Shown in pieces: positions 1,720-47,177 of a stretch of 55,457 nt of DNA (positions within the stretch are counted from its first letter, which is position 1; each line of letters begins with the position of its first letter). The notes beneath the pieces are model-generated. The model was given only the letters and a program-made list of their open reading frames with translations, was not told where the DNA came from and ran no database searches. The stretch spans positions 1 through 55,457 of the IMG/VR virus record IMGVR_UViG_3300045988_047237. The stretch is one strand, 5' to 3'. Both the position numbers and the translations under genes were made by a program. The stretch is from a virus.

Positions 1720-3635
1720 TTATAAAAAGCCTTACGGTAACTAACTTTATGGCTTATGCAGAGAAAACATTTACATTCGGTAAATTAACATCGCTGTCCG
1801 GAATGAATGGTGTCGGCAAGTCAACAGTTGTAACCGCTTATAATTGGCTGTTTTTTAACTGTGATTATGAACTGAAAGACAATCCACCGATAAGGCGCGA
1901 GGTTGACGGAGTAAGTATTGATGACATTGATACCTCCGTTTCCGCCGTAGTCGAGATTGACGGCAAGGAAGTAGCTGTACGCAAGGTTCAGAAGAGAAAA
2001 TACAGCAAGGACGGCACATCTTATAAAGATGATAATGTCTACTATATAAATGAGGTTGCCAAGACGCTTACCGCGTACAATGAATACTTTGACATTGATA
2101 TGAACATATTCAAGATGTGCAGTAATGTAAACGCATTTTTATCGAAAAAGCCGGCAGAAATGAGAGAATATCTCTTTACACTTGCTGAAATCAAGACAGA
2201 CTACGACATCGCATCGGCGCACGAAGAGTTGGCAGAGTTACTTCCGTTACTCAGCAAGTACACACGCGATGAAGTAATTGCCTTGAATAAGAAAGCTGTA
2301 GCGGACATCAAAGCAGAACTTCCGGTCCTTAAAGGTCAGATTTCGGAGAAAGAAAGAGACATTCAGATTAAGAATGCCACAGATAAGGGCGAACTGTTGA
2401 CAAAACAGAAAGAAATTGAGGGCAGATTAAAGACTATCGCAGATGCAAAAGCCGATAATGACAAGCTGTCATCCGAATATCAGGCATTATCAGACGGTAT
2501 TCTTGAACTGAAATTCAAGCAGAATGAGATAGAGGAAATCGCCAATATTGGACTTATTGCGAAACGTGATACGTTAAAGCAGGCAATTAGCGATACAAAG
2601 TCGGAATTATCTGACATTCAGAATGAGTGCGTTTCAATGCAGAGAACGATTGATAGCCTTACGGCAGACATTGACCGCAAGAAACGTATTCGCGATATGA
2701 GAGTAGAGGAATGGCAGCAGGCAAAAGATCGTAAATTTGACGAAAACAGCCTTGTTTGTCCTTATTGCAAGCGAGACTATGACGAGAGCAAAAAAGAGGA
2801 AATGCGAGCCGATTTCGACACGCACAAGGCAGAAGAATTAAAGAGGATAACTGATGCCGGAATGTCAATCAAATCTGACATCGAAAGCATAATTGCCGAG
2901 ATTGAAGAATACAATGGCAAGATTGAAGAAAAGGCAATAACCGCTAACAACCTTAGGGATGAAATTGTAAGTCTTACGGAAAGCCTTAATGCGATACCTG
3001 ACAAGGCAGATGTCAGCGATAACGACACATACAAGGCATTACAGACAGAAATCGAGAAGAAAGAAACACTTCTTAAGGCATCAAGTTCAATGGCTGATGT
3101 TAGGGCGAACCTTAAGGCAGAGGAAATCACACTAAACAGTCAGTTGATAGAAATTAAGAGTGAGATAGCCAAACTTGATACGGCTGCCGATACTGAAAGA
3201 CTTGCGGAACTGGAAAGACAGTACAAGGTCAAAGACCAGATGCAGACTGACGCTGAGAAGATACTTAAGCTTATTAAGGAACTCGACAAGTGTAAGAATG
3301 AAGAACTGTCGGACGAAATCAACAGTCATTTTGGCATTGTTAAGTGGAAACTTTGGGAACTTAGCAAGGGCGGAGAGTACAAGAATGTGTGTGTGCCTAT
3401 GGTAGACGGCAAGTCAATATTATCAACTATGAGTAACAAGGGCAATCGCATTCTCGGAAGAATTGATATATGCCGTTCACTACAGAGTATTAACGGTTTT
3501 AGCTGCCCGATATGGCTTGATGATGCAGAGAGCCTTGATGTAGGCAACCGCCATAAATTGGCTGAAACAGTAGGCAGACAGCTTATATTACTGATTGTAA
3601 ACGGCAGTGAGAAATTAGAGATTGTGGAGGAATAA
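1707..3635 (+). CDS. SMC/Rad50/RecF-like AAA ATPase (recombination module)
   Basis: N-terminal Walker A GMNGVGKST, long coiled-coil-like middle with a CPYC zinc-hook-like motif, C-terminal DD(A)ESLD Walker B-like segment. Lies next to recT. Confidence 0.75.
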   Translation: MREMIIKSLTVTNFMAYAEKTFTFGKLTSLSGMNGVGKSTVVTAYNWLFFNCDYELKDNPPIRREVDGVSIDDIDTSVSAVVEIDGKEVAVRKVQKRKYSKDGTSYKDDNVYYINEVAKTLTAYNEYFDIDMNIFKMCSNVNAFLSKKPAEMREYLFTLAEIKTDYDIASAHEELAELLPLLSKYTRDEVIALNKKAVADIKAELPVLKGQISEKERDIQIKNATDKGELLTKQKEIEGRLKTIADAKADNDKLSSEYQALSDGILELKFKQNEIEEIANIGLIAKRDTLKQAISDTKSELSDIQNECVSMQRTIDSLTADIDRKKRIRDMRVEEWQQAKDRKFDENSLVCPYCKRDYDESKKEEMRADFDTHKAEELKRITDAGMSIKSDIESIIAEIEEYNGKIEEKAITANNLRDEIVSLTESLNAIPDKADVSDNDTYKALQTEIEKKETLLKASSSMADVRANLKAEEITLNSQLIEIKSEIAKLDTAADTERLAELERQYKVKDQMQTDAEKILKLIKELDKCKNEELSDEINSHFGIVKWKLWELSKGGEYKNVCVPMVDGKSILSTMSNKGNRILGRIDICRSLQSINGFSCPIWLDDAESLDVGNRHKLAETVGRQLILLIVNGSEKLEIVEE

Positions 3636-3636
3636 T

Positions 3637-3972
3637 ATGCTTACGATATTGGAACATTCATTTAATTTTAACGGTTTTAATTGCTATGTGGTGCTCCGAC
3701 ACATGGGGGCAAACCGTGTTTACAGATGCGGATATGTGCAGCTTTCCAGGCATATTGATATTGCTATAGCAGACATAGACTGCCACGGTGGTATTACATA
3801 TGCTTCTCTCGAACCGCCAAGTCCCCTTGCAATCAATGATGCAGATAAATGGTACATTGGATTTGATTGTGCGCACCCTTTTGATACTACAGATGTTTGG
3901 ACTGTAGGCAGGGTTAGTGATGAATTGAGACACATTGTTGAGCAGATTTTAAGTAAAGAAAGTGAGGAATAA
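3637..3972 (+). CDS. hypothetical protein
   Basis: ATG 3637 six nt after ggagg; in the recombination operon. Confidence 0.55.
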   Translation: MLTILEHSFNFNGFNCYVVLRHMGANRVYRCGYVQLSRHIDIAIADIDCHGGITYASLEPPSPLAINDADKWYIGFDCAHPFDTTDVWTVGRVSDELRHIVEQILSKESEE

Positions 3973-3974
3973 TT

Positions 3975-5075
3975 ATGGCAGAGAACACAGCAGTTGCAGA
4001 AAAGAAAGCATTTACTACATCATTAAGCGAATGGAGTAATGCTATTACAGGCTTAATAATGGCCGATTACAAGGCTTGCGGAATGGATATGGATGATTAC
4101 GCCAAAGAGTGCGCAATGGAAGCTATGACAAGCATTTACAACCTTGTAAAGACAAACCCAAAAGTCAATATGGCCAATCTTGATACAAGCAATTTAAGGG
4201 GCATTGTTAAGCGATGCGCAAGCCTTAAGCTGAACGCGAGCGCATATCCAAGAGAATGTTATTTTCAGTTGCGTAATGTCAATGTCGGCAAAGACGCAGA
4301 CGGTAAAGACATATGGCAGCAGCAGGTAGAAATGGGAATAGAGGGTTCTGGATATGACTCTCTTCTTGTGAATTACGGTAAAGATGTCAAGCAGGTATAT
4401 CCATATTGGGTAATAAAGGACGGCGATTATTATGTGGCACCGAAGCATAAAGGCCTTGAAATTACACCGCCGGAATGGGAAGAAAAAGGTTTATCGGATA
4501 AGGCAGTCAGAGTTGTTTATCCGGTCAAGCTTAAAGACGGAATGATTACATATCTTTCCGCTGACAGAGACAGTGTTAAGATTAATCTTCTTAAACATGT
4601 TCAGCAGAATATGCTGAATGAAACATTTGGAGTAATTACCGGAACTAAAAAGCAGTATAACAAGGAAGTCGCAAGAACACGTTACGATGCCACACCGGAA
4701 GAGAAAGCCAAAATAAAGGAAAAGAAAGAGGAAGTTTTGGAAGCTTTAAGAGTTTGCAAGACTGTTGATGAAATGCTTGAATGCAAGCTTGCAAGACCAT
4801 TTATCAGCGGTGCATGGCTTGATACTCCGGAGAGTATGATTATCCGTAAGATGTGCAATAACGCCATAAAGAAGTATCCGAAAAATTATGATCCGATGGC
4901 GAGACAGGCACAAATGGAAATGGACGAAGTATATCAGGTTGCACAGAATGAAATTGCAGAAAACGCCAATTCCGTTGATTTTATCGAGAGCAAGGACATG
5001 GTTGACGGCACAGCAGCAGAAATAACAGAAGAACCGAGCGATGTAGCACCGTTTGCGGAAGAAAAGGAGAATTAA
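3975..5075 (+). CDS. recT: RecT-family single-strand annealing protein
   Basis: 366-aa ORF between the ATPase and SSB genes. Central region resembles the RecT core; acidic C-terminal tail. Confidence 0.65.
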   Translation: MAENTAVAEKKAFTTSLSEWSNAITGLIMADYKACGMDMDDYAKECAMEAMTSIYNLVKTNPKVNMANLDTSNLRGIVKRCASLKLNASAYPRECYFQLRNVNVGKDADGKDIWQQQVEMGIEGSGYDSLLVNYGKDVKQVYPYWVIKDGDYYVAPKHKGLEITPPEWEEKGLSDKAVRVVYPVKLKDGMITYLSADRDSVKINLLKHVQQNMLNETFGVITGTKKQYNKEVARTRYDATPEEKAKIKEKKEEVLEALRVCKTVDEMLECKLARPFISGAWLDTPESMIIRKMCNNAIKKYPKNYDPMARQAQMEMDEVYQVAQNEIAENANSVDFIESKDMVDGTAAEITEEPSDVAPFAEEKEN

Positions 5076-5765: not shown

Positions 5766-6493
5766 ATGAAACTTAAATGTATCGCAAGCGGTTCTTCTGG
5801 TAACTGTTATACCTTAACCGCTGATGACGGAGAAACACTTATCCTTGATTGTGGAATACCTCTTATGAAGATTAAAGAGGGATTGAATTGGAATATAGGA
5901 GGGATAGCGGGCGTGATTATAACTCACGCCCACCTCTAGACCATTCAAGAGCATTAAACGACCTTAAGGATATGCGAATACCGGTATTTGCACCGTACAT
6001 AAGCCTTAATCCTATGGCACTAGGCAGCGGTCAATTTAAGATAGCCGCTTTCGACCTGACAACGACAGACGGCAGGTGGACTCACACTAACGCAGACAGC
6101 ACCGAATGTCCTTGCTATGGGTTTATGATAATCCACCCGGAAATGGGGAAAATGCTTTACATAACCGATACGGAGTTGATTAAGTGGCGGTTCAAGGACG
6201 TAAACCATATTCTCTTAGGCGTGAATTACGACAAGGATTTAGTTGATGCCGACAATCCAAAGACAAGACACGTTTTCCGAGGGCATATGAGCATTGACAC
6301 AGCTTGCAATTTCGTTAAGGCTAACTATTCAGACAGCTTGCAGAACGTCATAATGTGCCATTTATCAAGCGAAAATGCTGACAAGGACTTATTTATCGAG
6401 AAAATGAAAAAAACCGCTTGTAGGGCAAATGTGGATGTAGCAGAACCGGGTAAACAATGGATTTTAAGGAAAGGAGATGAATGTCCGTTTTGA
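5766..6493 (+). pseudogene. MBL-fold metallo-hydrolase interrupted by a 2-nt frameshift inside the HxHxDH motif
   Basis: ATG 5766 gives MKLKCIASGSSGNCY...VIITHAHL then TAG 5937-5939. The other frame continues LDHSRAL... to 6493. Deleting one CT of cacCTCTagac restores THAHLDH. Confidence 0.8.
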
Positions 6494-6699
6494 TAATCGA
6501 AAAAGACAATATTACTGTTGAAGACACCAAAGATAATCTTATCGAAACCAAAGAAGGCATTACTTGTGGATGTGGAACCCCAAATTTACAAATGACTTGT
6601 CACGTTGACGGAGTTGATTTTTACAACTGCCAGTACAAGTGCAAGTGCGGTAACACTATTACAGTCGATATGAAAAGAGACAAGGAGGATAGGTGGTAA
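6481..6699 (+). CDS. hypothetical Cys-rich (zinc-ribbon-like) protein
   Basis: 72-aa ORF with CGC...C..C.C pairs. Confidence 0.5.
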   Translation: MSVLIIEKDNITVEDTKDNLIETKEGITCGCGTPNLQMTCHVDGVDFYNCQYKCKCGNTITVDMKRDKEDRW

Positions 6700-6848
6700 T
6701 GGATTACGACGAGGTTATATGTGCGAATTGCAAGCACAACACAAAGGACGATGAAAACTATTATTGCAACAACAAAGACAGCGACTGTTACGGATTACCG
6801 ACTATGTATGATGACAGTTGCGAAGATTTTGAAGAAAAGGAGATTTAA
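6699..6848 (+). CDS. hypothetical Cys-rich small protein (49 aa)
   Basis: ATG 6699 overlaps the upstream stop; CANC...C motifs. Not in the ORF track (under 60 aa). Confidence 0.4.
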   Translation: MDYDEVICANCKHNTKDDENYYCNNKDSDCYGLPTMYDDSCEDFEEKEI

Positions 6849-6850
6849 TT

Positions 6851-7114
6851 ATGATTAGCGCGGATAAAGGACATGTGCGTATTTCCGGCAAGGGAATTGA
6901 AATGCTTGCGGAGCTTGGCACCCTTGCGGCAGCTTTGTATGAAATGATGTGTGAGAAAGGAATATCGAAAGGCACAGCAGAAAAAGTAATTCATGGTGTG
7001 GTTGTTACCGGAATTTGCTCTAAGGAGACATTTGGCAAGAAAGAAAACTCGATAATGGAAATGGCAAACGAGATAGTCAAGAAGACACTCAAAGGAGAGA
7101 AAGACGATGAATAA
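6851..7114 (+). CDS. hypothetical protein
   Basis: 87-aa ORF after aaggag; overlaps the ssb start. Confidence 0.55.
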   Translation: MISADKGHVRISGKGIEMLAELGTLAAALYEMMCEKGISKGTAEKVIHGVVVTGICSKETFGKKENSIMEMANEIVKKTLKGEKDDE

Positions 7115-7547
7115 AGTTATTTTAATGGGTCGTTTAACGCGCGACCCGGACGTAAGGTATTCGCAGACAGCGAATGGAAGTATGGCGGTCGCAAGATACA
7201 CACTTGCGGTTGACCGTCGTTTTAAGAAAGACGGAGAAACAAACGCGGATTTCATATCGTGCGTTGCGTTTGGTAAGGTCGGCGAGTTTGCCGAGAAGTA
7301 TTTGCATCAGGGAACGAAAGTTGTTGTTGAGGGCAGAATACAGACCGGAAGTTACACCAACAAGGACGGTAATAAGGTTTACACGACTGACATTTACGTT
7401 GAGAATTGCGAATTTGCCGAAAGCAAGTCCGCGGCGGAACAGAACGGAGTAAACACGGCACCGGCACGACCAAAACCGAGTAATGTTGATGCAGACGGTT
7501 TTATGACAATTCCGGATAACGTAGATGATGACGGCTTACCGTTTTAA
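7107..7547 (+). CDS. ssb: single-stranded DNA-binding protein
   Basis: MNKVILMGRLTRDPDVRY..., OB-fold core, Gly/Pro-rich linker and acidic tip DDDGLPF typical of bacterial/phage SSB. Confidence 0.93.
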   Translation: MNKVILMGRLTRDPDVRYSQTANGSMAVARYTLAVDRRFKKDGETNADFISCVAFGKVGEFAEKYLHQGTKVVVEGRIQTGSYTNKDGNKVYTTDIYVENCEFAESKSAAEQNGVNTAPARPKPSNVDADGFMTIPDNVDDDGLPF

Positions 7548-7744
7548 GGAGAGATAATGAAGATTATTAGCGGAAAGGAATAACAAGTCCTCGGTAAACC
7601 GAGGTTGTGTAATGGGTGAAGTAAAATAGAATTGCGCACAAAACATAGTAAAATGAGTTCCGTGCAAGACCAGATTAAAGTATGCTAAAAAACGCTTGCT
7701 GACTATGTTATCCACGATTACAAAGCGATTTGTAACGTGGTGTT

Positions 7745-8479
7745 ATGAAGAAATTAAAAGTATGTTGGGTATCTGCCGGTATATCAAGCTTTATGGCAGG
7801 ATATTTAGCCGGAAATGTTGATGAATGGATTTACATTGACATTGCAGACCAACACCCGGACAGTATCAGATTTATTAAAGATTGCGAGAAAGCAATCGGG
7901 AAGAAGATACAAGTTTTAAAATCAAGTGAATATAGGAATGTTGAGGAATGTGTCAAGGTGTTTGGCGGTTTTAAACATGTAAAAGGCTTTACGCCTTGCA
8001 CAAATTGGCTTAAGAAACGTGTGAGAAAAGAATGGGAAGACCAACACAAGGATTGCGAAATCACTTATGTTTGGGGATTTGATGTAAACGAGAGGGCAAG
8101 AGCTGACAAAACGATTGAAGCCAACCCACAAGCATTACACGAATTTCCGCTGATTGACAAAGGACTTTCCAAAGAAGAGGTTCACGGTTTATTTACCCGG
8201 ATATTCGATTTCCCAAGACCTAAAATGTACGAAATGGGTTATTCAAATAATAACTGTATCGGCTGCATTCGTGGTGGTATGGGGTATTGGAACAAAATAA
8301 GGAAAGACTTTCCGGAAGTCTTTGACAGCCGGGCAAGGCTTGAAAGAGAAGTCAACCATTCCATTCTTAAGGATAGCAACGGTCCTATATTCTTAGATGA
8401 ATTAGATCCGAACCGTGGGAATATGAACACGGAGATAATGCCTGAATGTGGCGTTATGTGTTACTTGAACATTAATTGA
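7745..8479 (+). CDS. PAPS-reductase-like PP-loop (adenine nucleotide alpha-hydrolase) family protein
   Basis: N-terminal VSAGISS (variant of SGGxDS) and C-terminal NNCIGC...W segment, as in phage PAPS reductase/DUF3440-type proteins. Confidence 0.5.
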   Translation: MKKLKVCWVSAGISSFMAGYLAGNVDEWIYIDIADQHPDSIRFIKDCEKAIGKKIQVLKSSEYRNVEECVKVFGGFKHVKGFTPCTNWLKKRVRKEWEDQHKDCEITYVWGFDVNERARADKTIEANPQALHEFPLIDKGLSKEEVHGLFTRIFDFPRPKMYEMGYSNNNCIGCIRGGMGYWNKIRKDFPEVFDSRARLEREVNHSILKDSNGPIFLDELDPNRGNMNTEIMPECGVMCYLNIN

Positions 8480-8520
8480 TTTAACGCGCGTCAGCAATGG
8501 CGCGCAGGAAAGGAGATTAT

Positions 8521-8736
8521 ATGATTAAAGGCAGATTTGTTATTTTACCTTTCAAATATGTGTATTACATTTTTGATATAGACAATCCTAAGTATGCAAA
8601 GGTTGCAAAAAGATTTATAAAGGTGCTTTCAGTATATGAGATTGAGAACATTGACAAAGAAAACTGCAAATATTTTTCCACAAAAGAAAAAGCAGAAGCA
8701 AAACTGAGGGAATTGAGGTGTAACAATGGAAGATGA
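8521..8736 (+). CDS. hypothetical protein
   Basis: ATG 8521 after aaaggaga. Confidence 0.5.
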   Translation: MIKGRFVILPFKYVYYIFDIDNPKYAKVAKRFIKVLSVYEIENIDKENCKYFSTKEKAEAKLRELRCNNGR

Positions 8737-8890
8737 AAATTTCTTTGAAAAATGCAGGACTTGTCAACACTGTTATACAAAAAAAGATGACGATTATGTT
8801 TATTGCAGGAAAAGAAATGGAAAATGTGAATATAAACCATATAAGTCAAGAAAAGAATTGAGAGGTGAAGAAAATGAAGAAAGAAGTTGA
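8726..8890 (+). CDS. hypothetical Cys-rich small protein (54 aa)
   Basis: ATG 8726 after gaggtg; C..C..C...C pattern; short. Confidence 0.35.
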   Translation: MEDENFFEKCRTCQHCYTKKDDDYVYCRKRNGKCEYKPYKSRKELRGEENEERS

Positions 8891-9089
8891 CGGAGTAGTA
8901 GTAGAGGCAAAAAGCATTCTAACCGCACTGAAAATAATCAAGACAGTGTGCGAGGACAATGAATGTCAGACTTGCCCCTTTGGGAAGAATGATAATACAA
9001 CTGGGAAAATACTTTGCATGATTAAATGCACAACACCCGATGTATGGATTATTAATGACGAGACTGATGTATGGAGGGCATTACGATGA
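8874..9089 (+). CDS. hypothetical protein
   Basis: ATG 8874 eight nt after agagg. Confidence 0.5.
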   Translation: MKKEVDGVVVEAKSILTALKIIKTVCEDNECQTCPFGKNDNTTGKILCMIKCTTPDVWIINDETDVWRALR

Positions 9090-9223
9090 CAAACGCGGAT
9101 AAGATAAGGAATATGACGGATGAAGAGTTAGCAGAGTTTCTTATAACTTTTAAGAACACATTCGGCAAAGAATACGAAGGAGAAGTCAGTTGTATGCAAT
9201 GGCTTCAATCAGAAGCAGAATAG
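9086..9223 (+). CDS. hypothetical small protein (45 aa)
   Basis: ATGA overlap with the upstream stop; fills a gap in the operon. Confidence 0.4.
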   Translation: MTNADKIRNMTDEELAEFLITFKNTFGKEYEGEVSCMQWLQSEAE

Positions 9224-9231
9224 GAGAAAAT

Positions 9232-9480
9232 ATGAGGAAAGTTAAATCAACACCGGGAACTGTAGTGTTCAAGAGTAAGAAACATCATGTGTCATTCGCC
9301 TTTGGAATAGGCAAGTGCTGGGGAATATCCTTTGGCGCAGAGTACCATGAACGTTGGGATTGGCACCATTTTGTTATAGGCTTTACAATAATTAATTTTT
9401 TTGTTGCATTCAGAGTAAATTGGCGAATTTTCGGAGAAGGTTACGACAGAGACGAAATGTACTTTGAAATGTACGACTAA
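9232..9480 (+). CDS. hypothetical protein with hydrophobic segment
   Basis: ATG 9232 after taggag. Confidence 0.5.
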   Translation: MRKVKSTPGTVVFKSKKHHVSFAFGIGKCWGISFGAEYHERWDWHHFVIGFTIINFFVAFRVNWRIFGEGYDRDEMYFEMYD

Positions 9481-9491
9481 AAGGAGAGAAT

Positions 9492-9926
9492 ATGAAAGAT
9501 AGATATTTATTCAAAGCAAAGAGACTTGATTGGAGAGAATTTCCGGAAAAAGAACAGTAGTGGATAATAGGCTATTATGTATTAGGCTTTGATGTATACG
9601 AACAACCCGTACATTTAATATTTGAGCCTACATCAATGTTCTTTTCTCATGGAGAAACAGACGGTTGGACAGAAATTGACCCAAATACCCTCTGCCGATG
9701 CACCGGCTTGAAAGACAAGAATGGCAAGCTGATTTGGGAAAACGATATTGTAAAAATAAATAATAGCAAGGCAAATATGCTTATAACATTTAGAAATTTT
9801 GAAATTATATGTACAATTCCTGATGAAAAATATTACAAGCACAGGCTTGAATATGATACTGAATATGAAGTTGTCGGCAACATTTTTGACAATAAAGAGT
9901 TATTAGAAAGTGAGGAACGAATATGA
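9492..9926 (+). pseudogene. YopX-family protein with in-frame TAG at 9558-9560
   Basis: MKDRYLFKAKRLDWREFPEKEQ-TAG-WIIGYY...CTGLKDKNGKLIWENDIV...YEVVGNIFDNKELLE. Both sides are in the same frame and match the YopX pattern. Confidence 0.75.
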
Positions 9927-10204
9927 CAGAGAGTGACGCAAAAAAGATATTACAAAGAGATTTGCTAATACAAATTGAAAATAAAGCACTTCCAGATGGA
10001 ATAGAAGCCATTAAAATTGCCATCAAGGCTTTGGAAGAAGTGCAGCAGTACCGCCAGATTGGTACGGTAGATGAATGCCGCGAAGCTGTGGAGAAGCAGA
10101 CAGCGATTTCAAGAGAGATTATCGAGGGAAAATACTTCTGCCCAAAGTGTCATAACCTAATGCCTTATCCGGGATATTGTGGATGTGGGCAGAAAGTGTA
10201 TTGA
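9923..10204 (+). CDS. hypothetical protein with C-terminal zinc ribbon
   Basis: 93-aa ORF, CPKC...CGC motif. Confidence 0.5.
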   Translation: MTESDAKKILQRDLLIQIENKALPDGIEAIKIAIKALEEVQQYRQIGTVDECREAVEKQTAISREIIEGKYFCPKCHNLMPYPGYCGCGQKVY

Positions 10205-10218
10205 GAGGAGGGTGAACG

Positions 10219-10533
10219 ATGAGAAGACTGATTGATGTAGCAGATCTCGAAAAATTCATTCGCGAGCATAGATGTGTCATAGGTGATGACAATTTATTGT
10301 TGGTTGCAACGGATGACGGCAGGTGGCAGGAAGCATTACCGCTTATAAAGACAGCATATGATGTGGATGAAGTTGTGAAAGAAATTAACGAATGGACATT
10401 TAATGCAAACATAGATGTTGGCGACGGAACAATAATGAACCACAACCTCATTGTTAGGGATACGGCAATAAACATAGTAAAGGCAGGTGGAAACATTGAG
10501 TTACCAGAACATAGCAAGAGCCAAAGCGATTGA
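10219..10533 (+). CDS. hypothetical protein
   Basis: 104-aa ORF after gaggaggg. Confidence 0.55.
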   Translation: MRRLIDVADLEKFIREHRCVIGDDNLLLVATDDGRWQEALPLIKTAYDVDEVVKEINEWTFNANIDVGDGTIMNHNLIVRDTAINIVKAGGNIELPEHSKSQSD

Positions 10534-11086
10534 AGCTAAGAACCGTGAACGCCTTAAGAAAGTCAATTCCGGACTTGATGACGGCAGCGGTATTTACTTC
10601 TTAACGCGAACCGATGAAAACGGCATCCGATATTTCTATATCGGGCAGGCACTTCATATTATGCAGAGAATGTGCGGACACCTTGTTGGGTATCAGCATA
10701 TAGACCTCTCAATTAAGAAACGCGGATTTTACAGCGATGACAACCCTTACGGTTGGAAATTGAACTTTATGCACTACCCGAAAGCAGAATTAGACAAATG
10801 GGAGCAGTATTGGATATTGCAGTACACGAAGAAAGGTTATCAGTGCCGTTACAACAAGACTGCCGGAGGGCAGGGAGAGGGTAAAGAGAAGATAAACGAG
10901 TTCAAACCCTCTAAAGGCTACAGAGACGGCATAGAGCAGGGTAAAAAGAACCTTGCAAGGGAATTATCCTCTATCGCAGAAAAACACCTTATAATCCGCT
11001 TAAAGCCAGAAAAAGAGCATAATAAGGTGTCGCAAAAGCAGTATGAGAAGTTTATGGAATTATTGAAAGGAGGTGTATCAGAATGA
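10487..11086 (+). CDS. GIY-YIG domain nuclease
   Basis: SGIYFLTR...RYFYIGQALHIMQRM matches the GIY-(10-11)-YIG motif with a downstream R/E/N pattern. Start uncertain. Confidence 0.65.
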   Translation: METLSYQNIARAKAIEAKNRERLKKVNSGLDDGSGIYFLTRTDENGIRYFYIGQALHIMQRMCGHLVGYQHIDLSIKKRGFYSDDNPYGWKLNFMHYPKAELDKWEQYWILQYTKKGYQCRYNKTAGGQGEGKEKINEFKPSKGYRDGIEQGKKNLARELSSIAEKHLIIRLKPEKEHNKVSQKQYEKFMELLKGGVSE

Positions 11087-11256
11087 ATACAGCAGTTGTT
11101 ATAACCGCGATAATTTGCGGAACAATAATTTGCATATCTACAATATCGGCGATTTCCGGTAGTGTGCAGAGAAAGAGAAACGAGAAAAAGCTTAGAGAGG
11201 TTCAGAAAGCTTTTGACGATTTCTTACAGAACTTTAAAGAAGAAAGCGAGGAATAA
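11083..11256 (+). CDS. small membrane protein (57 aa)
   Basis: ATGA overlap; N-terminal hydrophobic helix VVITAIICGTIICISTISAI. Confidence 0.45.
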   Translation: MNTAVVITAIICGTIICISTISAISGSVQRKRNEKKLREVQKAFDDFLQNFKEESEE

Positions 11257-11258
11257 GT

Positions 11259-11489
11259 ATGTTTAAGGTTGTATTATCGCCGCTGACAAACCGCATCTAT
11301 TGCGGTAAATCAGGCAGGGGAACGCCAAATACACTGATAGGCAAGGAAGATGTCACATGTGATGCCTTACGCGCCGTTTTTGGGTGGCTTGTATCGTACT
11401 ATGAACACGCAGAATCGGGCGAGGAACTTATTGTCGAAGTTCCCGATACTGATTACGAGATTGTTGTAAGAAAGAAAAAGCAGAGGTAA
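11259..11489 (+). CDS. hypothetical protein
   Basis: 76-aa ORF after gaggaa. Confidence 0.5.
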   Translation: MFKVVLSPLTNRIYCGKSGRGTPNTLIGKEDVTCDALRAVFGWLVSYYEHAESGEELIVEVPDTDYEIVVRKKKQR

Positions 11490-11496
11490 ATGATAG

Positions 11497-12858
11497 ATGG
11501 GAATAATTATTGATTGTTTTGCCGGAGGTGGCGGAGCATCGGTTGGTATTGAAATGGCACTTGGCAGAAGCGTTGACATAGCGATTAATCACGATCCGGA
11601 AGCTATAAGAATGCACAAGGTAAACCACCCCAACACACTGCACCTTACAGAAGATATTTTCGAGGTCGACCTTGAACATTATGTCAACGGCAGAAAAGTT
11701 GACTTAATGTGGGCATCGCCAGATTGCACAAGCCACAGCAAAGCCAAAGGCGGACAGCCTAGGAACAGTGGTCTCCGTATTTTACCTTGGGCGGTATTCA
11801 AGCACGCAAAGAAAATAACGCCGGACGTTATAATTATGGAAAATGTTGAAGAGATACAAGAATGGGGTCCTTTAGATGAGAGCGGCCACCCTATTAAAAG
11901 CAGAGCCGGAGAAGATTACAAAAAGTTTATCGGTGCTATGATTTCACTAGGGTATGTCTTTGACTGTAGAGAATTGATTGCCGCCGATTATGGAGCACCA
12001 ACGACACGAAAACGGTGGTATGCAATCTTTCGGAAAGATGGAAAACCTATTTCTTGGCCGGTTCAGACACATAGCAAGGTCGGCGGACACCTCCCGAAAT
12101 GGAAAGAGTGTGGCGATTATATAGATTGGTCAGACCTTGGAAAGTCAATATTTGGCAGAAAGAAACCGCTTGCAGAAGCGACTATGAACCGAATCGGCAA
12201 TGGATTAAAAAAATATGTGTTTAATTCCGAAAAACCGTATTTTGTTGAAAGCAAGGATGCTTTTTCGTTTTTAATTCAATATCACGGAGAACAGAAAGCA
12301 GGTGATGCAAGAGGGCAGCTATTAACTGAACCGATTAAAACGATAGATACAAGTAATAGGTACGGATTGATAAGTGCTTTTGTAACGAAGTTTTATAAAA
12401 CCGGTGTAGGCCAAGGCCTTAACGAACCTCTTCATACTATTACGACATCTCCAGGGCACTTTGGCTTGGTATGTGCGTTTCTGATTAAGTACTATGGCGG
12501 AGGGACCGGTCAAACAATTGATAGGCCGCTTGACACAATTACAACAAAAGACAGATTTGGACTAGTATCTGTTTCCATTAACGGCGAACAGTACACTATT
12601 AGCGATATTTTTCTCCGAATGCTGAAACCGGAAGAACTGAAGCTGATGCAAGGATTTCCGGAGGATTATATCATTGACCGTGATATTGATTGGAAACCGT
12701 ACCCGTTGAAAGAACAGGTCGCCAGAATAGGTAATAGTGTCGTTCCGGTTATGGCACAAGCTTTAGTCAAGGCTAATTGCTCATATTTAGCCGTAGGAGA
12801 ACGCACTAAGAACATTGTTATAGATACGAGCGAAAAGCAGCTTAGAATTGCTATATAG
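11497..12858 (+). CDS. dcm: DNA (cytosine-5)-methyltransferase
   Basis: Motifs FAGGGG (I), SPDC (IV-like), MENV (VI), QGFP (VIII/IX region) and GNSV (X), in the canonical order. Confidence 0.88.
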   Translation: MGIIIDCFAGGGGASVGIEMALGRSVDIAINHDPEAIRMHKVNHPNTLHLTEDIFEVDLEHYVNGRKVDLMWASPDCTSHSKAKGGQPRNSGLRILPWAVFKHAKKITPDVIIMENVEEIQEWGPLDESGHPIKSRAGEDYKKFIGAMISLGYVFDCRELIAADYGAPTTRKRWYAIFRKDGKPISWPVQTHSKVGGHLPKWKECGDYIDWSDLGKSIFGRKKPLAEATMNRIGNGLKKYVFNSEKPYFVESKDAFSFLIQYHGEQKAGDARGQLLTEPIKTIDTSNRYGLISAFVTKFYKTGVGQGLNEPLHTITTSPGHFGLVCAFLIKYYGGGTGQTIDRPLDTITTKDRFGLVSVSINGEQYTISDIFLRMLKPEELKLMQGFPEDYIIDRDIDWKPYPLKEQVARIGNSVVPVMAQALVKANCSYLAVGERTKNIVIDTSEKQLRIAI

Positions 12859-12879
12859 GCAAAGAAAGGAATGTAGCTT

Positions 12880-13536
12880 GTGAGTGATGACACACAGACT
12901 ACAAAGGAAAGCAAGTCATACATAAGATTAAAGAATTATAGACATACAAACAGATTAAAAGGTAAATGCGCCGAGTGCGGTAAACCGTCAGAGAAATACA
13001 GATGTGCCGAATGCTCGGCTAAGAAGAACGAGAGAGAACGGTACGACAAAGAATACTACAAAAAATACGGTATCTGCCCGGTGTGCAAACAAGTTGACAT
13101 CGGGCCAGATGAGAGTATGTGCCCGGAATGTTTGGCAAAAGAATATACATACCAGATGAGTAGGCGCAATGCAAGCGAAGAAAGTCGCGCTAAGTACACC
13201 GGACAACACCGCATATGGGCGCAGATGAAATACGAAGAGGATAAGGCTAATGGAATTTGCACAAGATGCCGGAAACGCAAAGCAGACGGCGGTTATACGA
13301 CTTGTGGAGTATGCCGGGCGAAAAACAGAGGGCGTAAACTTGCCAAAGAGGTCAACAAGGTGTCAAAACGTGAGTATCGCGAAAAGAACGGCTTATGTTT
13401 CTTTTGCGATGAACCGCGCAAACCCGGTTACAAACTATGTGAACGGCATTATCAGATGAATGTTGACAAAGCAAATTCGCAGAGAGCCAAGGATGCTAGG
13501 AAGAATTTAATCAAGAATTGCATCCTATATAAATAG
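12880..13536 (+). CDS. Cys-rich multi-zinc-ribbon protein
   Basis: GTG start; six or more CxxC pairs in a Lys/Arg-rich 218-aa ORF. Confidence 0.5.
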   Translation: MSDDTQTTKESKSYIRLKNYRHTNRLKGKCAECGKPSEKYRCAECSAKKNERERYDKEYYKKYGICPVCKQVDIGPDESMCPECLAKEYTYQMSRRNASEESRAKYTGQHRIWAQMKYEEDKANGICTRCRKRKADGGYTTCGVCRAKNRGRKLAKEVNKVSKREYREKNGLCFFCDEPRKPGYKLCERHYQMNVDKANSQRAKDARKNLIKNCILYK

Positions 13537-27010: not shown

Positions 27011-27268
27011 ATGATGTATAACAGTTTGGCAGAAATGCAGAAATCTTATAGAGACCGTGTTAAGAATATTCTTGATAAAGACACCACTTTGCCAGCAAGT
27101 AAACGTGAAGTATTGCAGATATTTGATTACCTGGCAGAACAACACGCGGATGATGTTAGAGCTTGTAACATTCTTGATGAGGTTGTTAAGGCTAATGTCA
27201 GCCGCAGGAAATATAAAAAGATTATGCTTGCGGCGGCTAAAGAACTTATGAATAGGGGCATCGTTTAA
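27011..27268 (+). CDS. hypothetical protein
   Basis: 85-aa ORF after aaaggag; its 3' end overlaps the tRNA-Gln start. Confidence 0.5.
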   Translation: MMYNSLAEMQKSYRDRVKNILDKDTTLPASKREVLQIFDYLAEQHADDVRACNILDEVVKANVSRRKYKKIMLAAAKELMNRGIV

Positions 27269-27324
27269 TGGCAAGACACGGCACTTTGACTGCCGGGATA
27301 TGGGTTCAATTCCCATTGCTCCCG
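27254..27324 (+). tRNA. tRNA-Gln (anticodon UUG)
   Basis: Manual cloverleaf: acceptor 6 of 7 bp, D stem gttt/agac with GG loop, anticodon stem cggca/tgccg with loop cTTTGac, T arm atggg-ttcaatt-cccat. No encoded CCA. Confidence 0.75.
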
Positions 27325-27327
27325 TTC

Positions 27328-27366
27328 GGGAAGAGGTTCAGAATGGACGGCTGAATGGCTCTTCCC
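27328..27366 (+). other. long interrupted hairpin directly after tRNA-Gln
   Basis: 8 bp 27328-35/27359-66 plus 5 bp 27337-41/27351-55; no T-run. Confidence 0.5.
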
Positions 27367-27640
27367 CCACATGATATATCTGTATTCCATATTTATCATG
27401 AACCCCCTTTCTCCGCTAGGACTATTCTGTTAAGAACCGTGAGAGACGGTTCGGCGGGGTTTGTTCGGACAGAACATTAAGATGTCTGTTTGTGTGCGTA
27501 TCCCACTGCACACAAACGGCATTGTGGAAATCAACCCGTGGTTTTATTTGTTTCCCACGTTCCGTGATAGGCGGATGACATATTATAACTCCTCTTAAAA
27601 GTATGTGGTGTGCAAACGTACGGTTGTTTGCATACCGGCG

Positions 27641-27720
27641 CAAAACGTAGCTTAATTGGCAAAGCAAAGGTTTTTTCATCCTTTCTGACCTTGATGTCGG
27701 TCCGACTCCGGCCGTTTTGC
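27641..27720 (+). tRNA. tRNA-like element with aberrant anticodon arm (pseudo-tRNA or noncanonical tRNA)
   Basis: Perfect 7-bp acceptor caaaacg/cgttttg, U8, D arm gctt-aattggca-aagc, T arm gtcgg-tccgact-ccggc (C at position 55). The anticodon region folds only as 5 bp with a 9-nt loop ttttttcat, or 5 bp with a 16-nt loop. Confidence 0.4.
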
Positions 27721-27727
27721 TTAAAAC

Positions 27728-28330
27728 ATGATTATCTCGGTGCAGATAGGTTTTTCAGCCTTGCCGAGACACGCGAGAAAACGAGATAGGCATAATCGGG
27801 ATACCGGATATGCTAATATCTTTTGCTGTACTGTGAGGTACGGCAGGGAGACGGAAACCGTCAACAATGCTTGCGTGGTGTATCATCATAGAGAAGCCAA
27901 GGGCAGAGGACTTGTGGCTGTGAATAATAGACGCCTACGGTGTAGGAATAATCCGTTGAAGTTCGTGGAATGAGAGACCACGGACAAATCACGGAAAATC
28001 TCAAATTAAGCAGTGTGCCTTGAAACCGGAGAAATCCGGATATAACACAAGTAACTCGTTAAAGTAGCGGTATGGCACGATTTCATTCTAACAATTATCG
28101 AATGGCGAACACGATAATATTCCGAAAGAACCGTGAAATTTGTGGGTATCAATCCCACGTGTGCTTTGAAAGCGGCAAGAAGCCTTAGGGCCGCTCCCAA
28201 AGGCTCGGACTTGTTGCCACAGTGGCAGAATATGGCTGTATGTATGGTGAATAAAGAGAAATCTTAATTATGTTTTAGTTTTTGGAATGGCAAGATAGGT
28301 ATTGTAGTAGTAGGGACTTGCCGTTCCAAA
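27728..28330 (+). ncRNA. candidate large structured ncRNA (~600 nt; GOLLD/ROOL-like context)
   Basis: No RBS-supported ORF. Ten or more helices, including a GAAA-capped stem 28026-30/28035-39, long-range 28015-19/28074-78, and an H-type pseudoknot 28171-76/28190-95 with 28181-86/28200-05. Flanked by tRNAs. Confidence 0.5.
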
Positions 28331-28334
28331 ATAT

Positions 28335-28417
28335 GCAGATGTGGTGTAATGGTATCACAGTAGCTTGCTAAGCTATCCGGCAGAAATGCCGTCAAGGTTC
28401 GAGTCCTTGCATCTGCG
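28335..28417 (+). tRNA. tRNA-Ser (anticodon GCU), type II
   Basis: Acceptor gcagatg/catctgc, anticodon stem gtagc/gctat with loop ttGCTaa, long variable arm ccggcagaaatgccgtc, T arm caagg-ttcgagt-ccttg, discriminator G. Confidence 0.85.
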
Positions 28418-42946: not shown

Positions 42947-45900
42947 ATGGCAGATAACGACATTGACCGCTTGAAGATACAAGTCGAAGCCGAAGCGACT
43001 AAGGCAAGCAATGCAATAGACCGCTTGGCTAATAGTATGCTTAAGATGTCGCAAAGCCTTGGCGTAGATACGCACAAGCTGATGAACATTGCGACAAGTA
43101 TCAGACAAGTATCGGATGCGGCAACCGGCTTTAAAGGTGGCAAATCAGCCGAAATAACCTCTTTAGCACGAAGCCTTACCAAATTCTCATCTGTCGATAC
43201 AAACTCGATATATGGGATTTCTTCGGCGTTACAAAACCTTGCAAATGGTATGGCGGCGGCACAGAGTATAGACGCGAGCGGAATAGCCGGTCTTGTAAAT
43301 GCAATATCAAAACTTGGCGGCGTGAAGTCCACAGCCGGAACAGATAACTTGCTCCGTATGAAAGATGACCTTGTGCAATTCATACAAGGGATGAACTCTG
43401 TCGGAAGCCTTAATTTTGATGTTACCGGACTGTCAAACCTGATATACACGGTATCAAGGCTTGGTACGAATATATCAAGTAATGCCACGGCAAATTTACC
43501 GGGAATATCAACGCAGTTACAGAATTTTGTCCGTCAGATGAATGATATAGGCTCTATTAGTTTTGATGTAAATAGACTGTACAGTCTCACAAGTTCAATA
43601 TCAAGGCTTGGCGGTGTTGCATCGGGCAGGGCAATAACAAACATTCCGCAGTTGGCACAAGCGCTTAAGAACCTTATGGCAACCTTGGCGACGGCACCGC
43701 AGGTAAGCAATAATCTTATACAGATGACAAACGCGATTGCCAACCTTGCAGCACAAGGCAGTAAAGCAGGAACAGCATCAAAACGAATACAAAAAGGACT
43801 TGATAACGTATCAAGGAGTGCCACAACAGCGAAAGCCAAAACAGTGAGCCTTGCGCAGGTGTTTGGTAAGCTGTACGCGAATTTCTTTTGGGTTATTCGT
43901 GGCGTTAAAAAATTAAACAGTGCAATCCGAAGCACAACGGATTACATTGAAGCATTTAACTACTATACCGTAGCTTTTAACAAAATCGGTTCAGAATGGG
44001 GCGATGAATTTGCTAAATACGGTTATGACAATGCCACAGAATACGCGAACAGTTTTGCAAAGCGCGTAAACGATAAATTAGGCAAGTTATCCGGTCTTAA
44101 GGTTGATATAGATGCAGGACTTCTTGTTGAGAGCGGTGCGAAAAACCTTGGACTGAACATACAAGAGGTTACGCAATATGCGTCACAGCTTGCATCGGTA
44201 ACTAACTCATTAGGGCAGAGCGGAGAAACAACGACCGCAATAGCAAAGTCAATGACAATGCTTGCAGGCGATATAAGCTCTCTTTTTAATGTTGATTACT
44301 CAACAGTAGCAACGAATTTACAAAGCGGCTTAATCGGTCAATCAAGGGCAGAGTTGTTAGTTGCGTAAACAATGCGAAGTAACTAACAGTACCCACCATA
44401 GCGAAATTGCCAAGTAGGCTATGGATAAAAAGTGTGAAATTAAGCGGGGAAATGGTTTGCAACCACAATCCGAACCGAAGTATATCGGCAAAATGATATA
44501 CAGGGGCAACGCATAGAAGATGAACCTATAATTGAGATATTATAGAATATAATTCTTCCAAGAGGTCACACTATCGGGCAATACAGCACGCAGAGTGCTG
44601 TGGTAAAAAGCTATGCTGGACTATACTGTAATGGTATAGAAGTAAGGATAAAAAGCCTTACGATAACAACCGACTCTACAAGTACGGCATTGATATAACG
44701 AATGCTACATTACAGACATATGCCTATAACTTAGGCATTGAAAAATCCATAAGCGAAATGTCGCAAATGGAAAAACAGCAATTAAGAGTTCTTGCAATCC
44801 TCGACCAAAGCAAAGTATCGTGGGGCGATTTAGCTAATAGACGAAAGAAAGTTTACAGATTAACTTATCTTTCAAGTGTTGCATAAGAATAGAAATATCT
44901 TATGGCAATCGGGCAAAATCGGTGAAGGCTAAGGCTTTAAGCTATGCTAATACCGAGATAACTCAATAGATAGCGAAAGGTTATTGAGTATCGTAACGAG
45001 TAGGAAGTGAATAAATATAATCTTCCCAAGAGTGTCCGACACTACTGTATAAAGGACAGTATGAGGTGGAAGTGGCTACCACCAAACCAAACGTAAAACG
45101 TGGGTGATAATGTACTCTGAACTTGTAGGAAACTATAAGAAGCATAGGATAAAGAGCCTATGCGATAACATGATTGACAATAAATTCGCCAAACAATATG
45201 ATACGTCAGCTTAGTACGAACTTTAAGGAAACCGGAATGGTCTTAGGGCAGTTGTTTATACCTATGCTGCAAAAGGTTTTACCGGTTATCAACGGTGCTA
45301 CGATTGCGGTTAAGCGACTGTTAGTAAACATTGCGTCCCTTATGGGAATTAAGATTGACTTTGAAAGTTTCGGTCAAAGCGGTTACAAAGAGGAAAGCGG
45401 TGCCGTAGATGATGTTGCGGACAGCTACGATAATGCAGCCGCAGCCGCTAAAAAATGGCAAAATCAGCTTATGGGATTTGATGAAATCAATAAGCTTACG
45501 GAACAGAGCGATACAAGTAGCGGCAAAACGGCAGGTGCCAAAGATACACTTGACCTTACAGATGAAATTCTTAAGGCTACGGAAAATTACGAAAAGGTTT
45601 GGAACAAAGCCTTTGCAAATATGGAGAATGAAGCACAGAAATGGGCGGATAAAATTTACAACACGATTGTAAACCATAGGTGGTATGAAGCCGGAAAATT
45701 CATAGGTAGTCTATTGTCTGACGGTGTATCTTCTGTCGATTGGGAGGGTGTCGGAAAATGGATAAGCGATACCATATGCGGTGCCATTGATTTTGTCAGA
45801 GGTTTTATTGACGGTGTAGATTGGAATGAATTAGGCAAAGCCATTGTAGAAATGGTAAACAACATTGATGTTGGCGAAATAATTGTTTCAATCGCCAAAC

Positions 45901-47177
45901 TTGTGTTTTCACTAGCCGGTGCATTACTTGAATTTAATTGGGGAAGTTATCAAGGTGCCTGGGAAGAAGGTGGCGTAGGAGGAGTAATTGCAAGGATACT
46001 TGCCGGAAGTGCTCCTGGCTTGCCGATAATCATCAAGCTTACAACGGAAATTATCGCAAAGATAAAAGACACCGAATTTTTCAAGGCTATTAATGATTGG
46101 TGGGATGATAATGTCCTTCCAAAGCTTGAAAAGGCGTGGGAAATAAATACAAAGATTATCGCCGAAATAACGAATGTATTCAAGAACACCGCAAAGCAAT
46201 TATGGGATAACTTCAAAAAGGCGTGGAAGACTGTCGCAAAAGCCGGAATTGAAATTGTCAACGACTTTAAAAACACCGCGAAAGAAATGTGGGAAGATTT
46301 TAAAGACTCTTGGCTTGGAAGTTGGGTAATCTCAATCGGAAATGAGTTTGTCAATACCGCAAAACAGCTATGGGATAAGCTTAAGAACGAGTGGGATAGA
46401 ATACGCCATAATTGGATTGAAATAACTAACTTACTTAAGTTTACCGCAAGCGAATTGTGGGAAAGGTTCAAAGGAAGCGGTTTTGGAAAATGGGCAATCT
46501 CCATTGTCAATACACTTAAAAATACCGCATCGCAGTTATGGAACAATTTCAAGACGAATTGGGGCAATCGCGCGGTATCTATCATAAATACGCTTAGAAA
46601 CACGGCATCGGAATTGTGGGCGAAATTTAAAGCCGGTTGGAGAAACTTTGGAGTGAGCATAAAGAATGTTTTATTGCATCCTGCAAGTACATTGTATAAA
46701 AACTTTAAAATAGCTTGGTCGATAGCCGCTGCAGCCGGTGTTAAGATTTTTAACCGGTTAGCTGAAACTGCAAGGGAGTTATGGAACAAGTTCAAGGAAA
46801 ATTGGTATAAACTCAATCCGGTACTTAACATCGGACTAAGCCTGATTGACAAGATAAAAGGTCTCAGAGGCGGCGGTGGCGGAAGTGCTTTTGCAACCGG
46901 TGGATTTCCGGAAGACGGAGTATTCTATGCCAACCATAATGAACTTGTCGGACGTTTTTCCAACGGAAAGACAGCCGTCGCTAATAACGATCAGATAACT
47001 ACCGGTATTAGGGAAGCTGTAGTGAGTGGTATGTTACAAGTGTTTGGTGGTATGAATATGAGCAGTCAGCCTAGCCACATTGTAGTTCAGATTGACGGCA
47101 AAGAAGTATTCAGTGCTGTACAAAAGCAGGCAGATGACTTTACGACAAGAACCGGGCAACCGGCATTTTTAACCTAG
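42947..47177 (+). CDS. tail tape measure protein, three exons (42947..44349, 44673..44838, 45177..47177; ~1189 aa)
   Basis: ORF-1 ends ...LIGQSRA, the middle exon reads LYKYGIDITNATLQTYAYNLGIEKSISEMSQMEKQQLRVLAILDQSKVSWGDLAN, and ORF-3 resumes TINSPNNMIRQL. This is one continuous conserved TMP motif. Frames add up (1403+166+2001 nt). Confidence 0.75.
44350..44672 (+). mobile_element. ORF-less intron 1 in the tape measure gene (group I-like, ~323 nt; 5' boundary +/- 6 nt)
   Basis: Stops in all frames; many hairpins (e.g. acagcac/gtgctgt, ctatac/gtatag, gtaagg/ccttac). The 3' end ...ggataaaaagccttacgataacaaccg parallels intron 2. Ends in G. Confidence 0.6.
44839..45176 (+). mobile_element. ORF-less intron 2 in the tape measure gene (group I-like, 338 nt)
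   Basis: The 5' exon ends in T and the intron ends in G. Hairpins cataaga/tcttatg, gataactcaat/attgagtatc, ggtgg/ccacc, catagg/cctatg. Junction restores ...GDLAN|TINSPNN.... Confidence 0.65.

Follow-up and report, generated by a model that had tools for sequence, protein, structure and literature searches.

The window analyzed here is the whole 55,457-nucleotide stretch of IMG/VR record IMGVR_UViG_3300045988_047237 (positions 1-55,457, one strand), and our subject is its tape measure protein (TMP) gene and, above all, the insertion in that gene that we call intron 1. The gene lies in three coding pieces separated by intron 1 and by a second insertion, intron 2; the coordinates of all parts are collected in Table 1. 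An initial annotation of this DNA had described how the first TMP open reading frame (ORF) runs into a stop soon after the residues GQSRA and how a conserved motif resumes about 320 nt further on. Both descriptions hold. The ORF that opens at 42947 reads ...SGLIGQSRA, continues with AELLVA, and ends with TAA at 44366-68, and LYKYGIDITNATLQTYAYNLGIEKS picks up at 44674 in a frame different from that of the exon 1 ORF. The interval does contain stops in every frame (5, 7, and 10 over its 323 nt), and the stems that had been listed could be located (GTTAGTT 44356-62 with AACTAAC 44381-87, ACAGCAC/GTGCTGT, CTATAC/GTATAG, and GTAAGG/CCTTAC). The region also folds better than 100 of 100 dinucleotide shuffles, with z = -4.6.

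Comparison with relatives shows what the uninterrupted gene looks like. A protein search with the joined TMP returned 167 relatives, and all 19 of those that were aligned are continuous through GQSRALYKYGIDIT / LQSGLIGQSRALYKYGIDITNATL, with zero added residues at the intron 1 site. The DNA of L001, a close allele that lacks the intron, reads CAATCAAGGGCATTGTACAAG where the window has CAATCAAGGGC, then 323 nt, then ACTCTACAAG. Allele comparison thus gives a clean insertion, at phase 2 of an Ala codon, with no terminal inverted repeats and no target duplication. Joining 42947-44349, 44673-44838, and 45177-47177 produces 3570 nt, that is, 1189 codons and a stop, and the conceptually spliced protein aligns to uninterrupted 1189-aa TMPs without gaps (1173 identities with L004, 1176 with L007). 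The originally proposed boundaries, the Ala codon restored as GC|A, and the product of about 1189 aa are all borne out.

The protein allows two placements of the junction, C44349|A44350...G44672|A44673 or a one-base shift of the same, and only the former gives an intron with a final G. That G is present in all TMP-site members of the family and, with their exons joined in frame, in seven members in other genes; it is constant, and the base that follows it in relatives is A or T. We therefore set the boundaries at 44350 and 44672, the sole placement that keeps both the conserved protein and the terminal G. The alternative 5' site after T44355 that had been suggested would add Glu-Leu, which is seen in no homolog, and an alternative of our own that combined U44354 with a 3' site further upstream, after G44662, adds residues that are likewise found in no homolog. 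Skipping of exon 2 would be out of frame and give ...GQSRAQ followed by a stop; such skipping is reportedly known for the introns of phage Twort.

Part of the evidence for our interpretation is the fold. It was derived by hand from compensatory changes and then counted on a 17-sequence MAFFT alignment, A2. Two database patterns supplied further copies: a P2-loop pattern retrieved copies at the TMP site, and a P5-P4' pattern retrieved introns of the same type in other phage genes, mostly the major tail protein gene at LG|V, MG|L, and TFG|YG. Over the 17 sequences the fold comprises 92 pairs in 15 helices, with 96.3% of cells holding standard pairs, against 32-45% when the partners are slid by one to three columns. 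Double-sided change is seen at 64 of the 92 pairs, counted as cells and not as independent events, and none of 500 shuffles reached the observed covariation. P4, P5, P6a, P8, and P9 are each 97-100% paired with double changes.

These helices make up a group I core. P3 (five of seven pairs covarying) and P7 (two of six) cross as a pseudoknot, the P4-P6 domain is in place, and the terminal G is positioned by P9.0, which covaries as GC in 14 sequences and AU in three. At the sequence level, a guanosine-binding G-C pair lies by a bulged nucleotide: the presumed pair is G44511-C44616, which adjoins bulged T44617 and is closed by C44510-G44618. The elements AATTAAGCGGGGAAA and CAATCCG resemble classical P and Q, respectively, and the R and S elements likewise resemble theirs. 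An extra P7.1/P7.2 extension between P7 and P3' (44516-44558) is the mark of subgroup IA (IA1/IA2). The loop of the P1 extension, GTNNNNAATGCGNAG (44365-44378), is near-invariant across introns in different genes, which suggests some tertiary contact.

Statistical similarity to accepted group I introns comes from R1, a covariance model that we built of the family's 3' half, from P7 to the end. Its E-values are rough; with that proviso, it scores intron 1 at 199.7 bits (E 6.5e-47), intron 2 at 71.0 bits over 44993-45175 (E 1.7e-15), and the 3' domain of Twort orf142-I3 at 24.5 bits (E 4e-4). In all three, R1 aligns P7', P9, an AGAAG spacer, the P9.1 hairpin, and a G(A/T)TAACA...G tail. The Twort 3' domain was found by the structure-aware model only, an nhmmer profile of the family having given no match in Twort bases 1-50000. 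These features are best explained if intron 1 belongs to subgroup IA and combines the P7.1/P7.2 extension with a 3' domain like that of Twort.

Two further features set this intron apart, and one is its splice-site pair. Group I introns are nearly always preceded by a U, which pairs with a G of the guide (PMC2504315). The base before intron 1 is C44349, the second position of the Ala codon, and for that reason it must be C. Splicing after C is abnormal for a group I intron, and the apparent solution is a C·A pair in P1, in which the exon end GGGC meets the guide ACCC and A44391 stands opposite C44349. In relatives inserted after U, the guide has G at this position. One of them is L162, whose exon end GGGT (GGGT|AGAG) faces the guide GCCC, so that a U·G pair occupies the same alignment columns as C44349/A44391. 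The other U·G cases are L139, L152, and L157 (exon end (T/C)GGT, guide GCCG), L163 and L154 (AGGT, GCCG), L177, L326, and L302 (CGAT, GTCG), and L357, L293, L315, L286, and L301, with various exon ends and guides. C·A is found at the TMP site, in the window and its relatives (GGGC, ACCC), and independently in L141 (AGGC, ACCG). Hence the splice-site pair is U·G at about a dozen insertion sites and C·A at two independent ones, and it is never C-G and never U-A.

Guides were assigned from the aligned position just 5' of P2; automatic choice of the best complementarity led to spurious placements and was abandoned. The P2 loop ATTGCC, which would offer a C-G pair at the splice site, was rejected as the internal guide because in every family member this loop covaries with the strand before P8. 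In the TMP-site members L091, L113, L117, and L128, no nearby G is able to pair with the C. The exon side of P1 goes with the intron as well: AAGGGC occurs in nine of nine distinct intron-carrying alleles and AAGAGC in 30 of 42 intron-less ones, so the Arg codon is AGG, which completes GGGC, in all nine and AGA in those 30.

An engineered c-A pair in the Tetrahymena ribozyme supports accurate two-step splicing, with at least 54% circularization (PMC11417360). There, as here, an exon C stands opposite a guide A at the first-step site; the difference is that those are laboratory mutants, whereas here natural introns at two independent insertion sites are concerned. We infer that C44349·A44391 is a natural wobble substitute. 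As regards natural C·A splice sites, our look at the literature turned up engineered cases only. Doudna, Cormack, and Szostak are said to have mutagenized the c-A splice-site pair of the Tetrahymena ribozyme earlier, in 1989.

The other feature is a pseudoknot formed by the P2 loop. Six bases of this loop pair with the strand that directly abuts P8, and all six pairs change on both sides while remaining 100% paired. The variants are ACCATC/GATGGT, CCTACC/GGTAGG, GCCGTT/AACGGC, ATCGTC/GACGAT, GTTGCC/GGCAAC, and CCTATC/GATAGG, as well as ATCATC/GATGAT in L177. Twort and the second type of intron found at the GQSRA|LYKYG site carry a GUAA tetraloop on P2 instead, and we interpret the pairing as a likely stand-in for loop docking near P8. 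Identification with P11 of subgroup IA was considered and rejected, as P11 is described in the literature as a link between the P7 extension and P6 and is a different contact.

Intron 1 is patchily distributed. In the IMG/VR phages with 96-100% identity in the flanking protein, some carry neither intron (L004, L007, L011, L012, L015), some intron 2 only (L006, L008-L010), one intron 1 only (L013), and one both (L005), as in the window. Other TMP genes, with protein identities to the query as low as about 63%, have intron 1 at this position too (P0089, P0095, P0111, P0112, P0117). The Leu codon that follows the site (44674-44676) is CTC in nine of nine distinct intron-carrying contexts and in none of 42 intron-less ones, which have CTG (20), TTG (20), CTT (1), or TTA (1). 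The simplest reading of this link is a short exon tract that travelled with the intron when it was passed on from one ancestor, through recombination or homing; it may also reflect a splicing requirement, and no conserved P10 that would account for it was found. Intron 1 has no endonuclease gene; it probably spreads via recombination between co-infecting phages or with an endonuclease acting in trans, and in spreading would take a short tract of flanking exon along. A free-standing endonuclease that cuts GGGCATTGTA or GGGCACTGTA would be a candidate explanation of both the mobility and the linked CTC codon.

The family as a whole is large. The R/P7.1 pattern GCAACGCRTAG...AGAATATAAT finds at least 120 loci in viral contigs, and R1 gives 120 matches in the first 100 of 114 new pattern loci, with up to five per contig. 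The contig with five, L359 (IMGVR_UViG_3300007940_000010), holds its intron 1-type 3' domains within about 7 kb (5911-13086), together with a group II intron. Since only about a quarter of the R1 matches share the P1-extension loop motif, the 3' half is joined to several different 5' halves. Cultured phages have unannotated members too: upstream of the helicase gene in Bacillus phage vB_BauM_KLEB27-3 (119.5 bits with R1), between gyrase A fragments in Yersinia phage phiR1-37 (91.5 bits), and between two major tail protein fragments in Staphylococcus phage vB-SscS-F1 (44.6 bits).

Table 1. Parts of the interrupted TMP gene and of intron 1 (window positions), with members of the family in cultured phages (positions in the named locus)
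Feature	Position	Strand	Remarks
TMP exon 1	42947-44349	+	Ends with GC, first two bases of the Ala codon; from ORF list, homolog alignment, and gap-free spliced protein
P1 exon strand GGGC	44346-44349	+	C44349 before the 5' splice site; partner ACCC 44391-94
Intron 1	44350-44672	+	323 nt, ORF-less, group I-like; AGAG start, ...GATAACAACCG end, terminal G44672; from intron-less alleles, covariation-supported fold, and stops in all frames
P1 extension hairpin	44353-44390	+	12 bp, conserved loop GTNNNNAATGCGNAG; 10 of 12 pairs change on both sides
Internal guide ACCC (putative)	44391-44394	+	Four bases just 5' of P2; A44391 opposite C44349
P2 hairpin	44396-44424	+	7 bp, 15-nt loop; 5 of 7 pairs covary
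P2-loop pseudoknot, 5' strand ATTGCC	44406-44411	+	Six bases of the 15-nt P2 loop
P3, 5' strand AGTGTGA	44431-44437	+	Partner 44566-44572
P4/P5/P6a	44445-44501	+	P4 44445-48/44469-72, P5 44453-65, P6a 44480-44501; core elements compared by eye with Twort
P7, 5' strand CGCATA (R element GCAACGCATAG)	44510-44515	+	Pairs with 44612-44618 around bulged T44617; 2 pairs covary
P7.1/P7.2 extension	44516-44558	+	Between P7 and P3'; 9 of 12 pairs covary
P3, 3' strand TCACACT	44566-44572	+	Partner of 44431-44437
P2-loop pseudoknot, 3' strand GGCAAT	44577-44582	+	Directly abuts P8
P8 hairpin	44583-44601	+	6 of 7 pairs covary
P7, 3' strand TATGC-T-G (S element AAAAAGCTATGCTGGAC)	44612-44618	+	From alignment A2
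P9.0/P9/P9.1/tail	44619-44671	+	P9.0 44619-20 with 44670-71, P9 44621-39, P9.1 44642-61, tail GATAACAACC; aligned by R1 to Twort orf142-I3 and intron 2
TMP exon 2	44673-44838	+	A completes the Ala codon, then LYKYG...WGDLAN; from homolog alignment and spliced protein
Intron 2	44839-45176	+	338 nt, group I; T before, G at end; 48.1 bits with RF00028, 71 bits with R1; absent in L004, L007, L013
TMP exon 3	45177-47177	+	TINSPNN... to the stop codon, after the second gap; from homolog alignment and spliced protein
Member in phiR1-37	L400 1560-1731		
Member in vB-SscS-F1	L401 1540-1663		
Member in vB_BauM_KLEB27-3	L402 1432-1579		

Taken together, we consider that 44350-44672 is very probably a functional, ORF-less group I intron with the boundaries given above, and splicing is predicted. 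The initial annotation had also preferred an ORF-less group I intron to an intein or group II intron, and the precise in-frame insertion, the presence and absence among relatives, the covarying fold, and the R1 link to intron 2 and Twort agree with it. It is important to set out what speaks against this conclusion. The support for self-splicing comes from sequence. A C and not a U precedes the 5' splice site, so that the customary U·G pair is missing from a P1 helix that is otherwise present. The Infernal run with the Rfam group I model (RF00028) that had been proposed as a check leaves intron 1 unmatched, also in a search of the intron by itself at E <= 10, and none of 22 related loci has a match at gathering level. 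The same model strongly detects the three Twort orf142 introns (100.9, 97.4, and 63.6 bits); because these and intron 2 do score, its failure with intron 1 is not a general blindness to phage introns. The E-values of R1 are rough because calibration was short, and its Twort match took a fortuitous upstream GUAACGACUA as the 5' strand, although the likeness of the 3' domains is plain in the sequences themselves despite this look-alike. In addition, 10 of the 17 aligned sequences are closely related copies from one insertion site, so that the covariation counts overstate independent events, and the slid-column control is generous because the structure was fitted to the same 17 sequences. Lastly, a convincing conserved P10 was not found. 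Two candidates were tried: pairing between the 3' exon and the bases 5' of the guide is not kept across TMP-site members, and the match of AGAG at the intron start to CTCT in the 3' exon fails in relatives in other genes.

Three other readings have to be weighed against a functional intron. The missing Rfam match, the non-canonical C, and the fact that metagenomic contigs can derive from defective phages would all suit a group I-derived element that has lost splicing or depends for it on a host or phage protein, leaving truncated or separate TMP pieces or a defective genome. We regard this as unlikely, since compensatory changes preserve the fold in TMP genes whose protein identity falls to about 63%, which implies selection at the RNA level; moreover, exon 2 has neither a start codon nor a ribosome-binding site of its own, and exon frames and flanking protein are intact in every carrier. 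Less likely again is that a functional intron lies one base further 3', with the exon ending at A44350 and the intron at A44673. The spliced nucleotide sequence, and with it the protein, would be identical either way. Such an intron would, however, end in relatives with A or T in place of a conserved G and would have a plain A-U pair before its splice site, and the U·G pair of L162 falls exactly in the columns of C44349/A44391.

That the interruption is something else entirely, whether a group II intron, an intein, a translational bypass element, or a small transposon, seems to us improbable in the extreme. Nothing specific favors it, apart from a different nearby insertion in relative P0092 that resembles the start of a group II intron. 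With its AGAG start and 323 nt, intron 1 lacks the GUGYG start, the domain V, and the length of at least about 600 nt of a group II intron, and no RF00029 or D1-D4 match was found within the window. An intein would be an in-frame coding insertion with a Hint domain, and here each frame has 5-10 stops. Known bypass gaps are far shorter than 323 nt, and the inverted repeats and target duplication expected of a transposon are absent.

If intron 1 is functional, we would picture its removal as follows. The transcript of the tail operon would fold into the P1-P9.1 core, in which the guide ACCC would hold GGGC, the end of the exon, and the C44349·A44391 wobble would replace U·G. Free guanosine at the P7 pair G44511-C44616 would attack after C44349, and the terminal G44672, placed by P9.0, would next occupy the same guanosine site. 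The exons would then be joined as GC|A and, with intron 2 also removed, the 1189-aa frame would be restored.

Introns of this kind have close counterparts. The TMP genes of Bacillus cereus-group prophages contain the group I introns TMP-IVS1/2/3 (Tourasse and Kolstø 2008, PMC2504315); the TMP and tail tube introns of that group include ORF-less members, several in one gene, and different introns sharing one site (PMC2504315). Compared by description only, intron 1 is like TMP-IVS1/2/3 in its type of host gene, the lack of an ORF, the number of introns per gene, patchy presence, subgroup IA, and relatives in tail tube genes. It differs in the clade of the host, as intron 1 is found in gut Clostridia-type phages, and in having C where the U rule applies to the Bacillus introns. 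In the second counterpart, the likenesses are the R/S ACG...CTG pattern around P7, the P7.1/P7.2 extension, the presence of several small ORF-less introns in one tail gene, and the 3' domain, with P9, AGAAG, the P9.1 hairpin, and the G(A/T)TAACA...G tail in the same order. These are shared with the Twort orf142 introns I1-I3, which are self-splicing members of subgroup IA2, with a crystal structure available for I2. The Twort introns, in contrast, reach 64-101 bits with RF00028 and use U·G. Their P2 is capped by a GUAA tetraloop, and that of intron 1 by a 15-nt loop that engages in the 6-bp pseudoknot at P8; in P7 they read GACUA, and intron 1 reads GCAUA.

Intron 2 is a cousin in the same gene. 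It shares with intron 1 the architecture of P7, P7.1, P9, P9.1, and the tail, as well as presence and absence among near-identical phages; it differs in being recognized by RF00028 and in its canonical U, other 5' half, long P8, and endonuclease-bearing relatives. Its RF00028 score of 48.1 bits (E 6e-11) lies under the gathering threshold of 50, so that default Rfam annotation would miss intron 2 too. The RF00028 match ends at 45139, and the intron continues through a P9.1-like hairpin to G45176. When the TMP region was compared by megablast with GenBank phages, the sole match was a 94-nt piece of intron 2 in Staphylococcus phages. In the near-identical phage L014 (3088-4360), intron 2 is a 1272-nt version with a 316-aa ORF (3203-4153), whose N-terminus looks like that of a GIY-YIG-type homing endonuclease.

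Other insertions sit close to the intron 1 site. In L165, a 311-nt, unrelated-looking group I intron with a Twort-like core (2629-2940) sits two bases downstream of the site: it interrupts the Leu codon following its first base, is preceded by a canonical U, and ends in G; the same type is present in the relatives P0104, P0106, P0107, P0113-P0115, P0118, and P0120. Because this intron lies in the same motif, at least two intron families share GQSRA|LYKYG as a hot spot. In P0092, a relative of TMP exon 1, the ORF diverges after ...LQSGL, some codons before the site of intron 1, and its continuation, VAPLVGAWIEIAYL, looks like translation running into the beginning of a group II intron. Elsewhere in the window, a full-length ROOL RNA (27712-28285; RF03087, 363 bits) lies at 27254-28417 of this phage-like window, flanked by three tRNA genes at 27254-27324, 27641-27720, and 28335-28417.

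A group I intron in a phage TMP gene is, as such, ordinary: a known kind of element in a known type of location. What appears to be new is the C·A splice-site pair, the covarying P2-loop pseudoknot as a candidate, and the size of the family that RF00028 misses. We are inclined, with modest confidence, to see here a natural group I lineage in which an isosteric C·A replaces U·G, allowing insertion where the preceding base is the fixed second position of an Ala codon, and a 6-bp pseudoknot beside P8 replaces P2-loop docking, in a large family missed by Rfam (at least 120 copies in IMG/VR, and members in cultured Bacillus, Yersinia, and Staphylococcus phages).

According to recent work, the Rfam and GISSD models under-represent phage introns (PMC11878797). 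RF00028 is blind to the present family, which is abundant in viral contigs and goes unannotated in cultured phages whose genes are called as split fragments; as a result, tail, gyrase, and helicase genes will go on being broken up by standard annotation. The P2-loop pseudoknot, with its covariation, offers a clean candidate for a peripheral tertiary contact that relies on base pairing in place of loop-receptor docking. The C·A pair, if true, would be a natural test of the long-standing idea that the 5' splice site is marked by the geometry of the wobble and not by the identity of the bases, and it would open more sites to colonization by group I introns and to engineered ribozyme targeting.

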